From NCBI GenBank assembly GCA_976551045.1, contig CDPCPM010000014.1, positions 15,190,001 to 15,254,000 of the forward strand: DNA of 64,000 nt, in the 5' to 3' direction. Numbering within the stretch: the stretch's first letter is position 1; each line of letters opens with the position of its first letter. Of the stretch, positions 11,905 through 60,819 are shown piece after piece. The notes below the pieces were generated by a model, which searched no databases, was not told the DNA's origin, and was given only the letters and a program-made list of their open reading frames with translations. A program made the position numbers and the translations under genes. The DNA is from Glaucostegus cemiculus (taxonomy: Eukaryota).

Positions 11905-12098
11905 CACACAAAAAGCTGGAGGCACTCAGCAACTCAGGCAGCATCTATGGAGGGAAATGGATGGTCAATGTTTTGGTTCGAGACCCTTCTTCAGAACTGT
12001 CCATTTCATTCCATAGATGCTGCCTGACTTGCTGAGTTCCTCCAGATTTTTATGCGTTGCTCCAGATTTCCAGCATCTGCAGTCTCTTGTGTCTCCAT
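11905..12098. mobile_element. Palindromic Penelope-like (PLE) terminal-repeat mini-element with decayed hammerhead core
   Basis: ~50 bp inverted arms 11911-11961 / 12000-12050; loop on - strand reads CTGAAGAAGGGTCTCGAACCAAAACATT. Confidence 0.7.
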
Positions 12099-54451: not shown

Positions 54452-55086
54452 AAGTCGTCGTCGTCATGGCTATCCCTCGAGGTCAAGGACGATGGTCTTC
54501 ATTCCGTTGATCTATTTTTGGGCTCTCAAGTGTCTTATGAGTCCAATCTTGGCTCTGAAAGTTCCTCCGCATTCAGGACAGGTGGTTCCAAATGGCAGAT
54601 CGGGCTTTGGTTGTTTCTGCTTCTCTTTCCATTTTCTCCTCTTTTCCTCTAATTCTGTACATCTGATGGCTTCGAAAGTTGCTGTTCCTTCTCGGATGAT
54701 GGCTTGCCAGAGTTTCCTGTCCTTGGCATTGGTTTCCCAATTGTTGATGTCAATGTTATATTTCTTCATGTTTGCTTTTAAGACGTCTTTGCATCTCTTC
54801 TGCTGTCCGCCTCTTTTATGTTTGCCTACTTTAAGCTGGGAGTAAAAGATTTGTTTTGGCAGACACTCGCCTCTCATCCGAACAACATGACCACTCCATC
54901 TTAGTTGGTTCTTGATAACATAGGCTTCAATGCTTGTTGTTTTTGCTCCGTTTAGCATGTTGACGTTGGTTCTTCTATCTTCCTAGCTGATATTTAAGAT
55001 ATTTTAAAGACAGCGTTGATGGAACTTTTCAAGTGCCTTCAGATGTCGTCGGTATACTGTCCAAGTTTCTGATGCATACAGGAGCA
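54452..55086 (-). mobile_element. Young 5'-truncated RTE LINE nested in a Rex1 tail
   Basis: ORF 54512-54958 QLRWSGHVVRM..LPKQIFYSQL..CPECGGTFRAKIGLIRHLRAQK; (GAC)n tail; flanked by Rex1-tail pieces 54415-54452 and ~55090-55200. Confidence 0.9.
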
Positions 55087-56594
55087 CTAGAGACACAATA
55101 TCCACAAGAAAAACAAATTCAACATAAATTGTACAAAACTATACAAGAAAGAACACAATTAAAACAAAATAAATGAAGTTCATTGTGGTACAAAGTGTAG
55201 AACACAAGCTCAAGCTCATAAATAGCAAATATTGGGATATTTTACTTCACCCTAAAATGATCATCCTAGATGGATGCCTGGAGGGGATTGAAGATGGAAA
55301 CCATGGGACAATGCAAGCAACAATTGATTGTGGTAGAAGAGGAGGTTGAGGGTTTTGAAAAGATGATGCTAGATGGATTTATTGGCCTTACCTATTGGTA
55401 ATTATCATGCAAAGTTTTGGAATCCATGAGCAGAGGATTGTGATGTTAACATTTCAGTGCTTATAGCAAAGCCCTAACGAAGAACACTAGATGTCAATTT
55501 GTCAATCTTATATTCCTGTTTAAGTTTTGAAGATCCTGATATTGGATTGTTGGGGAAATAAGCAATACAATTCTTTTCAGTTAAGTGTTTTATAAACAAA
55601 ACACACACGATGACAAAACATGAGATTACTTTGTATACACAATTACATGAGTGGATAAGTCTAGCACAATTCTGATAATACCAGTGTTGTTCATGTCTCT
55701 AATGTTTTTTCTTCTTTCATCTGTTGTACACCAGCTGTTACTGTAACACCATGCAATTGCAACCAATCAAGATGTCAACACTGCATTAAATTCTCTTTCT
55801 ATCAGGAACAAAGCAGTTCACAACAATATTATCAAATGCATAGTGAAGATTACCAACAAACAAATATTTCAAAATAGTAGACATAACATTTTGTATTGTC
55901 AGCATGCAAGTATCTCCAACTTGCTTCATCACCAAGATTTCAGTGAACTGTTTTCATTAATATTAAAGTGCACTGAAACATTACCAGAGGAAAGTAACAA
56001 GCACTTTGTGCCTAACTAGCCATTGAGGGAGTACAGTAATAAATGAGCAACATGAAGAGAATGAAACAATTTCATTTTATTCAATGAGATTATCAGAGAA
56101 AAATTAATTTAATTTGATCCTTAGTTTCTTTAAGGTTGAGATACTTAATTGTTTAACTTTTCCAATAGAACTTTTCCAATTACTCTGACCTCGGAGGACT
56201 TCAGAAACTGCTAAGTATTTTCTCTATTTTTTTTTAATTAAAGTGTAAGAGTAGAGTAAGATTTTTAACAAGGGTGTAAGATACTAGTGTTAGATAGTAT
56301 TTAGAAGTTATTTTTAGTAGGGTTATATAAGCTTTAAGGGGTCGAGTGAGGGCTGCACTGCGCAGGCGCCACGCAGGCAGCTTAAAAGGCAACCAGCTTC
56401 TAGAGCGGGCAGCGTCAGAGCGGCAGCAGAGTGAGGGGGGAGCAGAGTGTTCGGGCTTTGGCTCAAGGGGCTTCGGCTTGAAGGGGCCAGGCAGGGGAGT
56501 TACTGGTAAGTAAAGGTAAGGCTTACCTGTTGAAGTTACATAGTTGGACAAAACAGGTCTAAGGGGAACTAGTTAAGATGGAGGGCATGGTGCA

Positions 56595-57527
56595 GTGCTG
56601 TGGGAGGACGTGGACCCTGTTGAGGTCCACGTTGACCACTTCTGCGGTAAGCGTGTGAGGCTGGAGGAACTTCGGCTCAAAATTGATGAGCTGGAGTCAC
56701 GGCTTCAAACACTGCAGAGCATCAGGGAGAGAGAGAGTTATGTAGATGCAGCACATCAGGAGACAGTCACCCCACTTAGAGCAGATACTTCAGGGGGCCA
56801 GGTAGTAGATAGCTGGGTGACTGTCAGGGGAGGGAAAAGGAAGGGGAAAACAAATAGCCAGACAGTGCAGAGAACCCCGGAGGCTGTTCCCCTCAATAAC
56901 AGGTTTTCAACTTTGGAAACTGTGGAGGGGGATAGCCTGCAGGAACCAAGCACTAGTACCCAGGTCACTGCCACTAGGACCAGTACTACTGCTCAGATGG
57001 GGAAGAAGGGGACGAGAAATGCAGTGGTGATAGGGGACTCAAAAGTCAGGGAAACAGATAGGAGATTCTGTGGAAGTGAACATGAATCCCGGATGGTATG
57101 TTGCCTCCCAGGTGCCAGGGTCCGGGATATTACTGATCGGGTTCACAGGATTCTCGAGTGGGAGGGAGAGCAGCCAGAAGTCATGGTTCATGTTGGTACC
57201 AATGACATAGGTAGAAAGAGGGATGAGGTCCTGAAAAGGGAGTTTATGGAGCTAGGCAGAAAGCTGAAGACCAGGACCTCAAGGGTAGTAATTTCAGGAT
57301 TACTACCAGTGCCACGTGATAGGAAAGGTAGGAACAGGGCGAGGTGGCAATTAAATACGTGGCTGAGAAAGTGGTGCAGGGTAGAAGGTTTTAGATTTTT
57401 GGATAACTGGGACCTCTTCTGGGGAAGGTGGGACCTGTACAGAAAAGACGGGTTACACCCCAACCAGAGGGGGGCAGATATCCTTGCAGCACAGTATGCT
57501 TGGATGGTTCATGAGAGTTTAAACTAG
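56595..57527 (+). CDS. CR1 ORF1: zinc-finger remnant, coiled coil, SGNH/GDSL esterase-like domain
   Basis: VVIGDS, CLPGA, HVGTND, DGLHPN motifs; LEELRLKIDELESRL heptads; likely true ATG at 56578 is now out of frame. Confidence 0.88.
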   Translation: MLWEDVDPVEVHVDHFCGKRVRLEELRLKIDELESRLQTLQSIRERESYVDAAHQETVTPLRADTSGGQVVDSWVTVRGGKRKGKTNSQTVQRTPEAVPLNNRFSTLETVEGDSLQEPSTSTQVTATRTSTTAQMGKKGTRNAVVIGDSKVRETDRRFCGSEHESRMVCCLPGARVRDITDRVHRILEWEGEQPEVMVHVGTNDIGRKRDEVLKREFMELGRKLKTRTSRVVISGLLPVPRDRKGRNRARWQLNTWLRKWCRVEGFRFLDNWDLFWGRWDLYRKDGLHPNQRGADILAAQYAWMVHESLN

Positions 57528-57666
57528 TTGGCGAGGGGGATGGGAACCAGGAGGGTGTAGAGCCACTCTGTCTGTTAGAGAGACAGACAGAGTGTGTCTC
57601 TCTACATCCTCTAAAAGAGGATGTAGAGGTTACAGAAAAGGCAGATCTAACAGACAGAGTGGCTCT
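57518..57666 (+). promoter_or_regulatory. Candidate -1 programmed ribosomal frameshift cassette (U_UUA_AAC plus downstream structures)
   Basis: T TTA AAC TAG in ORF1 frame; -1 frame open 57515-60664; multiple perfect inverted repeats 57551-57666. Confidence 0.6.
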
Positions 57667-60664
57667 TAGGAAGGAGAGGCAGAGTAGAGGCCATAATAGT
57701 AAAAAGGTGGTTAAACTAATCAGGCAAGATGAAGGAAACCATCTTAGATTAAAGGAGGTGGTATGCGGGAACAAGTCGACGTGTAGTGAAGATGGTAAGA
57801 AGGACAGGCGGGTGGAAGGTAAGGATAATTTAGAGATCAATAGAAGTTCTATAGTTGATGCTGTTCTAAAAGTACTGTATTTTAATGCACATAGCATTAG
57901 GAATAAGGTCGATGACCTAGTGGCACAGCTACAAGCTAAAAAATATGATATCGTGGCAATCACCGAATCATGGCTTACTGACGGATGTGATTGGGGACTG
58001 AACATCCAAGGGTATACGGTGTATAGGAAGGATAGGAGGGTAGGCAGAGGGGGTGGTGTAGCCCTGATGGTCAGTAATAATATAAAATCGATAGAAAGGA
58101 AGGACATAGGGGTGGAAGAAGTGGAATCCTTATGGGTGGAGCTAAGAAATAGCAAGGGTAAAAGAACGCTAATTGCAGTTATATATAGACCCCCTAACAG
58201 CAGCCGAGAGGAGGACTATAGGATACAGTTAGAAGTAGAAAAGGCGTGTCAAAAGGGCAATGTGAAGATAATTATGGGGAACTTCAACCTGAAGGTCGAT
58301 TGGGAAAATCAGCGAAGAGGTGGATCGCAGGAAACTGAGTTTGTAGAATGTCTACAGGATGGCTTCTTGGAGCAACTTGTAGATGAACCCACCAGGGGAA
58401 GGGCCATTTTGGATTGGGTACTGTGCAATGAACCAGAGCTGATTAGGGAGCTAAAAGTAATGGAACCATTAGGAACCAGTGATCACAATATGATTGAGTT
58501 TGGAGTCAAATTTGAAAAGGAGAGGCTCATAACTGGTGCACATATATGGCAATGGAACAAGGGAAACTTCAGCAGTATGAGAGAGGTACTGTCTCAAATC
58601 GATTGGAAGAGTAAGCTTGCAGGTGGGACGGTGGAGCAGAAATGGATAAAGTTTTTACAAGAAATAAGGAAGGTGCAGGATAGGTATGTTCCAAGAAAAA
58701 AGAAAGTTCTAAATGGAAAAAAGGCACATATGTGGGTAACGAGAGAGGTTAAGGCTAAGATAAGAGCAAAGGGGAGGGCCTACAAGGTAGCAAAAATAAG
58801 TGGGGAAACTGAGGATTGGGAAACATTTAAAAACCTGCAGAAAGAAGCTAAGAAGGTCATTAGGAAAGAAAAGATGAATTACGAAAGGAAATTGGCAGAT
58901 AACATTCAAACAGATACTAAAAGTTTTTTTAAATATATGAGGTGTAAAAGAGAGACAAGGGTTGATATAGGACCAATTGAAAATGGTGGGGGAGATATTA
59001 TAATAGAAGATACAGAGATGGCAGAGGAACTAAATAAGTATTTTGCATCAGTCTTCACTGTGGAAGATACCAGCAATATACCAGATAGACAGGGGTTCCA
59101 GGGGATTGAACTGAGTACAGTTGAGATTACTAGGGAGAAGGTGCTAAGGAAGCTAAGTGGATTAAAGACAGATAAGTCACCCGGACCGGATGAGGTGCAC
59201 CCTCGGTTTCTGAAGGAGGTGGCTTTAGAGATTGTAGAGGCATTAGTGATTATTTTCCAAGAGTCAATGGACTCCAGCATGGTTCCGGAGGACAGGAGAG
59301 TAGCGAACGTAGTTCCACTGTATGAGAAAGGTGGGAGGCAGCATAAAAGTAATTACAGACCAATTAGTTTGACATCAGTAGTGGGAAAGATACTGGAATC
59401 GATCCTCAAGGATGAGGTTACGGAATACCCGGTGTTTCAAGACAGGATAGGTCCAAGCCAGCATGGTTTCATAAAGGGAAGATCTTGCCTGACCAACCTA
59501 TTGGAGTTTTTTGAGGAAATCACAGGTAGGGTGGATAAGGGAGAGGCAGTGGACGTTGTGTATTTAGACTTTCAAAAGGCCTTCGACAAGGTGCCGCATC
59601 AGAGGCTGATTATTAAGATGAGTACGCATGGAATCACAGGAAAGATATTAAAATGGGTCGAGCATTGGCTGGTAGGCAGAAAGCAACGGGTAGGAATAAA
59701 GGGATCCTGTTCTGGATGGCGACAAGTTACTAGTGGTGTCCCGCAAGGGTCGGTGTTGGGCCCGCTACTTTTCACTTTATATATTAACGATTTGGATGAT
59801 GGAATAAATGGTTTTGTAGCTAAGTTTGCGGATGACACCAAGATTGGCGGTGGAGCAGGGAATATAGAAGAGGCAGGAAGGCTGCAGAGAGACTTGGATA
59901 GGTTAAGTGAATGGGCAAAGAAATGGCAGATGAAATTCAATGTTGACAAATGTGCTGTAGTACACTTTGGCAAAAGAAATGAATGGGCAGATTATTATCT
60001 AGATGGGGAGAAAATTGGAAGTACGGAAGTACAAAGGGACTTGGGGGTATTCATGCAGGACACCCTAAAAGTCAACCACCAGGTCGGATCGGTGATAAAG
60101 AAAGCGAATGCTATGTTGGCGTTCATTTCGCGAGGTATAGTGTATAGAAGTAGGGAAGTGATGATGAGGCTCTATGGAGCACTGATACGTCCTCATTTGG
60201 AATACTGTGTGCAGTTTTGGGCCCCACACCTTAGAAGGGATGTGCTGATGTTGGAGAGGCTCCAGAGGAGGTTTACAAGGATGATTCCTGGTATGAAAGG
60301 GCTTACCTATGATGAGCGTTTATTGGCTCTTGGACTGTACTCGTTGGAGTACAGAAGAATGAGTGGGGACCTCATAGAAGTATTTAGAATGTTGAAGGGA
60401 ATGGATAGAGTGGATGTGGAAAGGCTGTTTCCCTTGGTGGGTGAGTCCAAGACTAGAGGGCACAGACTTAGAATCAGAGGGAACCAGTTTAAAACAGAGA
60501 TGAGGAGAAATTACTTTAGTCAGAGGGTGGTGGAGTTGTGGAATTCTCTGCCACATACAGCTGTAGAGGCTCAGTCAGTGGGGGCATTTAAAGGGGAGTT
60601 AGATAGGTACCTAATTAATCAAGGTATCAAGGGATATGGGGATAAGGCTGGAAATTGGGGATAG
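57659..60664 (+). CDS. CR1 ORF2: APE endonuclease + reverse transcriptase (frame open from 57515; track start is GTG)
   Basis: YFNAHSI, DIVAITESWL, IMGNFN, SDHN, NYRPISLT, YLDFQKAFDKV, GVPQGSVLGP, KFADD; 1001 aa with no stop. Confidence 0.95.
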   Translation: MALRKERQSRGHNSKKVVKLIRQDEGNHLRLKEVVCGNKSTCSEDGKKDRRVEGKDNLEINRSSIVDAVLKVLYFNAHSIRNKVDDLVAQLQAKKYDIVAITESWLTDGCDWGLNIQGYTVYRKDRRVGRGGGVALMVSNNIKSIERKDIGVEEVESLWVELRNSKGKRTLIAVIYRPPNSSREEDYRIQLEVEKACQKGNVKIIMGNFNLKVDWENQRRGGSQETEFVECLQDGFLEQLVDEPTRGRAILDWVLCNEPELIRELKVMEPLGTSDHNMIEFGVKFEKERLITGAHIWQWNKGNFSSMREVLSQIDWKSKLAGGTVEQKWIKFLQEIRKVQDRYVPRKKKVLNGKKAHMWVTREVKAKIRAKGRAYKVAKISGETEDWETFKNLQKEAKKVIRKEKMNYERKLADNIQTDTKSFFKYMRCKRETRVDIGPIENGGGDIIIEDTEMAEELNKYFASVFTVEDTSNIPDRQGFQGIELSTVEITREKVLRKLSGLKTDKSPGPDEVHPRFLKEVALEIVEALVIIFQESMDSSMVPEDRRVANVVPLYEKGGRQHKSNYRPISLTSVVGKILESILKDEVTEYPVFQDRIGPSQHGFIKGRSCLTNLLEFFEEITGRVDKGEAVDVVYLDFQKAFDKVPHQRLIIKMSTHGITGKILKWVEHWLVGRKQRVGIKGSCSGWRQVTSGVPQGSVLGPLLFTLYINDLDDGINGFVAKFADDTKIGGGAGNIEEAGRLQRDLDRLSEWAKKWQMKFNVDKCAVVHFGKRNEWADYYLDGEKIGSTEVQRDLGVFMQDTLKVNHQVGSVIKKANAMLAFISRGIVYRSREVMMRLYGALIRPHLEYCVQFWAPHLRRDVLMLERLQRRFTRMIPGMKGLTYDERLLALGLYSLEYRRMSGDLIEVFRMLKGMDRVDVERLFPLVGESKTRGHRLRIRGNQFKTEMRRNYFSQRVVELWNSLPHTAVEAQSVGAFKGELDRYLINQGIKGYGDKAGNWG

Positions 60665-60819
60665 ATATGTTATCTTTTCTTTTCTCATGGAGCAGACTCG
60701 AAGGGCTGAATGGCCTACTTCTGCTCCCTTGTCTTGTGATCTTGTGATCTTGTGAAAAAAATTGTTATATAACATGCTCAAGTTACACATTCCACACTCC
60801 ACATTGTTGCCTAAAAATG

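Follow-up and report, generated by a model that had tools for sequence, protein, structure and literature searches.

A nest of inverted repeats at the ORF1-ORF2 junction of an elasmobranch-like CR1 element is a 60-nt templated insertion and very probably a scar without function

A nest of overlapping inverted repeats lies just downstream of the junction between the two open reading frames of a CR1 retrotransposon, within the 64,000-nt stretch of DNA analyzed here (the window). The nest is an insertion of 60 nt that took the place of 6 nt, with a net gain of 54 nt and in frame. Very probably it is a scar without function in one decaying elasmobranch CR1 copy. As for its origin, a one-off templated insertion by a host polymerase, of the polymerase-theta or SD-MMEJ type, appears somewhat probable.

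The nest is contained in a full-length CR1 LINE on the plus strand, whose ORF1 encodes an SGNH esterase and whose ORF2 encodes an AP endonuclease and a reverse transcriptase (Table 1). The esterase domain was recognized by a profile match (PF13472, E 5e-14), the zinc finger and coiled coil of ORF1 were read off the alignment, and ORF2 matched PF03372 and PF00078. CR1 elements end in short tandem repeats of the kind found at the 3' end of this copy, and the combination of an esterase ORF1, an endonuclease/reverse transcriptase ORF2 and a short tandem 3' tail identifies the host element, by its sequence, as a CR1 LINE. The best match of ORF1 was a protein of Pristis pectinata (71%), followed by those of other rays and sharks (~50%), which marks the DNA as elasmobranch-like. 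The ORF2 frame had been described as open across the nest; this was confirmed, as the frame runs for 1049 open codons and the remaining two frames are stopped in the stem-nest region. The first AUG of ORF2 in the window subfamily is codon 185, within the endonuclease. No second copy of the linker was found within the 64-kb window. A 9-nt direct repeat (56322-56330 and 60764-60772) flanks the element, with its second copy 8 nt past the octamer tail, and is a weak candidate for a target-site duplication.

Table 1 Features of the CR1 copy and of its insertion, in window coordinates.
Feature	Position	Strand	Remarks
CR1 ORF1	56578..57527	+	Zinc finger, coiled coil, SGNH esterase; 5'-end frameshift in the window copy
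CR1 ORF2 frame	57515..60664	+	Linker, AP endonuclease, reverse transcriptase; -1 relative to ORF1
T TTA AAC heptamer and ORF1 stop TAG	57518..57527	+	Candidate -1 frameshift site, family-wide, independent of the insert
G-rich tract	57530..57555	+	Starts 5 nt past the heptamer, ends at the left junction of the insert
Left-junction microhomology	57551..57555	+	GAGGG vs GAGGA at 57617-57621; putative role in the join
Templated insertion, 60 nt	57556..57615	.	Stands in place of C(A/T)GGTC (~6 family bases); adds 18 in-frame ORF2 codons, net +54 nt
Insert piece, 7 nt	57556..57562	+	Direct copy of 57622-57628, exact match
Insert piece, 21 nt	57559..57579	-	Inverted copy of 57646-57666, exact; stem 4; from repeat search
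Fold-back inside the insert	57576..57604	.	57576-57585 vs 57595-57604; stem 5; from repeat search
Insert piece, 12 nt	57583..57594	+	Direct copy of 57650-57661; forms stem 1 with the inverted piece
Insert piece, 13 nt	57600..57612	-	Inverted copy of 57616-57628; yields stem 3 and most of stem 2
Three untemplated A, right junction	57613..57615	+	Found in both parses
Ordinary family linker	57616..57666	+	Template of all copied pieces; covered by family contigs; matches 51/60 insert bases
3' terminal octamer repeat, (TCTTGTGA)x3	60732..60755	+	End of the element

The original prediction had listed five overlapping stems, and each of them pairs as claimed: stem 1 (57564-57575 with 57583-57594, 12/12 bp), stem 2 (57551-57562 with 57600-57611, 12 bp including one G-U), stem 3 (57600-57612 with 57616-57628, 13/13 bp), stem 4 (57559-57579 with 57646-57666, 21/21 bp) and stem 5 (57576-57585 with 57595-57604, 10/10 bp). 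A repeat search returned the same five, and stem 4 is the sole perfect 21-bp inverted repeat with arms at most 120 nt apart in the 64-kb window. The minimum free energy of the region is -68.3 kcal/mol (z -7.4), a stability that none of 200 shuffled sequences equaled, and the folding is not due to chance. Stems 1+2 and 3+4 had further been proposed to form two alternative folds. Both combinations exist, but they are unbalanced: when enforced, they reach -45.9 and -65.4 kcal/mol, respectively, so that the 3+4 fold is favored by ~19 kcal/mol, and equilibrium pairing probabilities are 0.0 for stems 1 and 2 and 0.93 and 0.98 for stems 3 and 4.

Family members of related organisms were used for comparison. 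Contigs from three public runs, two of them (X1 and X2) from a single sample of organism A and the third (X3) from organism B, were mapped onto 57350-57950 at 80% likeness (1862, 1834 and 77 contigs, respectively). Depth was 0 at 57560-57601 in all three runs, with X1 and X2 reaching 8,000-33,000 in the flanking bins (57539-57559 and 57623-57643); zero depth is not probative alone and was counted only together with contigs that join across the site. All 14 joining contigs (three from X1, ten from X2 and one from X3) skip ~57556-57615 and carry about six other letters, C(A/T)GGTC, in its place. The net difference is 54 nt in 8 of the 12 listed joint rows and 53-56 nt in the other four. Three joints reach a standard of 31 letters on both sides (shorter side 36, 57 and 76) and the remaining ones have 20-28, and 11 of the 14 contigs may lie below that standard. 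The identical join is read by loose contig ends, 14 and 9 of them stopping at 57555 and 8 and 8 at 57616. The stem nest is a 60-for-6 insertion, that is, relative to the ancestral state, an insertion accompanied by a small deletion. The three runs do not contain the window's own copy (X1 depth at 57851 never has the window letter), and the absence of the insert applies to the CR1 family of the related organisms A and B. By its own terms the proposal of an RNA element was to be given up if the repeats proved private and free of covariation; within organisms A and B the nest is absent from the joining contigs and not conserved, the window's own species lying outside these data. The bases lost in the window copy belong to a WGGTCAG motif that also occurs in the loose ends of diverged contigs (X1 57550; X3 57548 and 57636), and the insertion may have damaged a conserved junction element. 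A family contig of organism B (X3) has a 9-nt in-frame insertion at window position 57847 in the linker, which indicates that the linker tolerates in-frame indels.

The source of the inserted bases is adjacent to them. The right flank (57616-57675) supplies 51 of the 60 as exact pieces of at least 7 nt and the preceding 60 bases supply 0 of 60, against a background of 2.4 on average and 33 at most in 1054 control windows. The insert matches DNA no farther than ~50 nt from the junction, in direct and inverted repeats of 5 nt or more. In stems 3 and 4 a copy faces its own template, and in stems 1, 2 and 5 one copy faces another. Both alternative folds can be drawn because each of two templates was copied twice, once in either orientation. 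When the 60 nt were cut out in three versions, the structure fell from z -7.6 with the insert to z -0.1 to -0.75.

A minimal parse with the bottom strand growing leftwards has five templated segments and eight untemplated bases (primer microhomologies 0, 0, 3, 4 and 4 nt); with the top strand growing rightwards it has six segments and four untemplated bases (0, 4, 0, 5, 0 and 5 nt). Either way, several overlapping rounds drew on the right flank or on the insert itself, and the 21-nt inverted piece has a 4-nt primer microhomology whichever the growth direction. Candidate microhomologies of 3-5 nt occur at three of the five or three of the six switches and are 0 elsewhere, and the final join has GAGG with one mismatch, which corresponds to the G-U pair of stem 2. 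Parses with resected 3' tails as the only templates were rejected, as they left 17 or 27 bases untemplated; an unwound top strand or an RNA template would therefore be needed.

The copy that received the insert is decaying. Read from its first AUG, ORF1 meets a stop after 26 codons (internal AUGs occur from codon 141), and ribosomes that start at the first AUG thus never arrive at the heptamer. The endonuclease motif is GNFN, compared to GDFN in 8/8 homologues checked. Among the variant rows listed, nine sites differ from the window in at least 95% of family depth and comprise seven amino acid changes, with two CpG-type losses of Arg, a pattern that would fit neutral decay on the copy's own branch, along which it is ~1.7% diverged. 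At this divergence the chance of ORF2 remaining open is ~0.13, and a random insert would be in frame and free of stops with a chance of ~0.1; the insert lies in the one indel-tolerant part of ORF2, and the open frame was partly why the site was picked. The open ORF2 and the in-frame insert are the best points for an origin in an active lineage, being unlikely but not rare outcomes of decay, and we give that origin little weight because the decay pattern places most of the divergence on the terminal branch. No mismatch separates the copies from their templates, for which the chance is 0.08-0.18 if the insert is as old as the copy; the ends of exact-match segments bias this count, and the result leans weakly towards a later, host-made event.

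For the order of steps, the enzyme and the timing, we infer the following. Once the element was in place, a free DNA 3' end would have become available at ~57616, just 3' of the G-rich tract, through a break in the germline or a stalled fork. A polymerase of low processivity, most likely the host polymerase theta (TMEJ / SD-MMEJ), would have extended this end by five or six short bouts of synthesis, dissociating after each and priming again on its own product or in the neighboring 50 bases, in either orientation. The product would finally have been joined to the other end via the GAGG microhomology, with loss of 6 bases, and the frame would have stayed open by luck. The 3' edge of the G-rich tract may have halted a leftward-moving polymerase, although this link was noticed post hoc; in worms, polymerases stall at G4 motifs, according to the available sections of PMC4654259.

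As far as the accessible parts of the literature describe them (Yu and McVey 2010, PMC2943611; van Schendel 2016, PMC5068794; Carvajal-Garcia 2020, PMC7165422), the complex insertions of polymerase-theta end joining and SD-MMEJ resemble this scar in combining a small deletion with an insert of overlapping direct and inverted copies from no more than 50 nt of the junction, in using a single flank as template, and in having microhomologies, of which the window scar shows candidates of 3-5 nt at roughly one switch in two and where the ends were finally joined. They differ in that the window scar is natural, of germline origin and in a shark/ray retrotransposon rather than at induced breaks; at 60 nt, made in five or six rounds with tracts reaching 21 nt, it is also long, and many of its pieces are inverted. 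The fit to polymerase theta is imperfect: its tracts would be long at 17-21 nt, inverted pieces prevail, and microhomology is missing at two or three of the switches. First tracts of the enzyme are 'rarely more than 10 bp' in the relevant portion of PMC7165422, while tracts over 20 occur, templating is one-sided as a rule and snap-back is a minor class in worms (PMC5068794, the last from the S7 legend). Deletions at G-quadruplexes in C. elegans dog-1, which are made by TMEJ (PMC4654259, in part), likewise carry a templated insert and have their 3' junction a few bases beyond the 3' end of a G-rich tract, but they lose 50-300 bp in the 5' direction from three-tier motifs, whereas the window scar lost 6 nt and kept the tract, which is at best a two-tier or bulged quadruplex. 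They were rejected as a close match, the tract being retained. Among natural mutations of this known class, the scar is unusually long.

A maker other than a host polymerase would be the element itself. LINE reverse transcriptases are highly processive, which counts against repeated switching by such an enzyme, and we regard it as rather unlikely that the CR1 reverse transcriptase made the scar at the birth of the copy, during 3'-to-5' copying of its RNA. The rather unlikely route would comprise a stall at the 3' edge of the G-rich tract, addition of three bases, a fold-back of the cDNA, one switch to RNA, a second fold-back and a restart 6 nt further. It accounts well for the templates, all of which lie 3' of the site in the part already present in cDNA (51 vs 0), as would be expected if templates came from the copied side, and in the bottom-strand parse four of the five segments need the nascent strand alone and the fifth needs the top strand, which RNA could supply. 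The site also adjoins the third-strongest G-rich peak of the element, and in vitro L1 ORF2p accepts DNA as a template, moves from one template to another, extends hairpins and adds bases without a template (PMC10830420, available text). However, one-sided templating is equally the rule for polymerase theta (PMC5068794, as above), and the perfect identity of copies and templates leans weakly against an insert as old as a ~1.7% diverged copy. Template switching by LINE ORF2p in target-primed reverse transcription, in the portions of PMC10830420 and PMC11702581 available, shares with the window scar the templates on the reverse-transcribed side, the location inside a LINE and, as seen here at the first junction, three untemplated bases. 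The cases in these sources lie at 5' junctions or are single inversions or foldbacks (twin-primed inversions and foldbacks at 5' junctions in PMC11702581), whereas the window scar has five internal switches in 60 nt in the middle of a full-length copy, with register regained 6 nt on. The suggestion of a scar of template switching is supported, with a host repair polymerase favored over the reverse transcriptase. It is very improbable that the 60 nt arose during library preparation or assembly, as a fold-back chimera absent from the animal. Such an origin would agree with the lack of the insert in any contig of the three runs, with two N gaps in the window, which reveal a scaffolded assembly, and with arms identical to their templates; but the runs also lack the other private letters of this copy, so that absence is expected, and five or six switches with a 6-base loss resemble in-vivo repair scars. 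Moreover, a single-molecule chimera seldom survives in a consensus assembly.

Coronaviruses use the heptamer U UUA AAC, and the nest had been proposed to act beside such a site as a conformational frameshift or pause element. It is extremely unlikely that the nest is an RNA element under selection whose two folds modulate -1 frameshifting or pausing, and which may have become fixed within a young subfamily in the window's species. The insert is in frame and stop-free (with the chance given above), it lies just downstream of the likely shift site, and the 1+2 hairpin (57551-57615, -40.5 kcal/mol) could form during RNA synthesis. These points are outweighed by the absence of the nest from 14/14 joining contigs of organisms A and B, by arms that are exact copies of neighboring DNA with no covariation, by the loss of all stability without the 60 nt, by folds that differ far too much in energy for a balanced switch, and by a copy in which ORF1 is broken and the Asp of GDFN is gone. 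Spacing is a further obstacle: as had been noted, the first stem starts 26 nt after the heptamer (stem 2, counted from TTTAAAC at 57518-57524), and stimulators of -1 frameshifting start 5-9 nt, or for a minority 12-15 nt, after it in the available part of PMC5009743. The arrangement otherwise recalls -1 frameshifting at U UUA AAC as described in PMC5009743, in that the heptamer lies where ORF1 ends, ORF2 follows in the -1 frame and a stable structure is found downstream, but apart from its distance the nest is also missing from the family contigs of organisms A and B that join across the site. Rfam gave no family above threshold for the nest, and two weak matches to generic miRNA hairpins were rejected. 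The inserted peptide is common to no protein found, and a linker search against 1.84 billion representatives returned two matches, both unrelated repetitive proteins on inspection. The regulatory proposal was therefore abandoned. The nest itself matters little beyond offering a long and clean case, from nature, of a known class of mutation whose ancestral state can be read from sister copies. It is likewise a warning that a z-score of -7 and 'mutually exclusive stems' beside a slippery site can arise from one repair event, and its dismissal clears the ground for the question of how CR1 ORF2 is translated.

The T TTA AAC TAR junction with its G-rich tract is a better lead than the nest. Leu-Asn are the last two ORF1 residues in 66 of 120 listed homologues and in 61 of the 90 that reach the C-terminal motif, the exceptions being mostly a teleost group with a different ending; in 42 aligned ORF1 sequences, chosen from the top 72 matches, Leu and Asn are the last two in at least 90%. 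Two naturally fused proteins (P0037 and P0060) read Phe-Lys-Leu in the -1 frame at the junction, and in the bird-like locus L003 TTTAAAC runs directly into TAA. Together with the lack of an early AUG in ORF2, these endings, fusions and the L003 heptamer point to -1 frameshifting, and in vertebrate CR1 elements of the esterase type ORF2 is probably reached through -1 slippage at T TTA AAC TAR. Contigs with different upstream sequence match the window from 57513 on (loose ends of 27, 21 and 3 contigs), and the junction seems to be conserved across CR1 subfamilies.

The G-rich tract had been placed at 57529-57555 and is indeed present, although it contains just three runs of at least three G. Its G4Hunter-type score of 1.6 is the third-highest peak in the element, the quadruplex found by ViennaRNA has two tiers only (-2.4 kcal/mol), and family contigs cover the tract with no variant among the rows listed. 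Possibly it acts as a stimulator through a quadruplex-like or protein-bound fold, perhaps with the neighboring WGGTCAG motif that the window copy lost. The whole chain, in which the tract stimulates the -1 shift and its fold also stalled the reverse transcriptase, leading to five switches in a full-length copy and leaving the scar as the footprint of the stall, is quite improbable. If true, it would mean that a LINE links ORF1 to ORF2 by frameshifting as retroviruses do, with a G-rich tract as natural stimulator, and that target-primed reverse transcription can include several internal switches.

Reinitiation is a further possibility in some families, as indicated by two features. In the metagenome contig of L003 (2546-2558) the heptamer is followed by TAATG, a stop-start overlap that resembles the one described for SART1, and the linker contains a Met in several ORF2 proteins of Hypanus. 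Both frameshifting and reinitiation may be open at L003. The translation of ORF2 in two-ORF LINEs is described as unclear in the available text of PMC3708506. No paper stating a CR1 frameshift was found, though the 1997 papers on chicken and turtle CR1 may mention one; the word 'frameshift' has 0 occurrences in the available text of PMC13343379 and PMC3708506, and 'CR1' has 0 in the first 300,000 characters of PMC5009743.

Pattern scans with the junction DNA gave 0 matches in viral, metagenome and genome contigs. Scans with the ORF1 alignment gave 10 metagenome and 4 genome loci at 24-37% identity, none of them elasmobranch, and 0 loci in viral contigs; the ORF1 end and the junction were visible in L003 alone among these loci. 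A protein search with ORF2 residues 1-200 found 0 among 562 candidates, residues 1-300 found 13 proteins, matched via the endonuclease, and a search of public runs listed no RNA run with the element. Two elasmobranch CR1 proteins (P0004 and P0123) are deposited as Pseudomonas aeruginosa and Aeromonas cavernicola on short contigs and are probably host DNA contamination. Elsewhere in the window, positions 11925-12040 hold another long inverted repeat, with a perfect 18-nt core, longer imperfect arms and ~55 nt between them, possibly a small DNA transposon or a piece of a SINE. Many other LINE fragments, CR1-like ORF2 pieces of 27-62% identity, occur in about a dozen places from 9574 to 63990, and a 156-codon frame on the minus strand (54512-54982) resembles the C-terminus of an ORF2 of a family that we take to be RTE-type.
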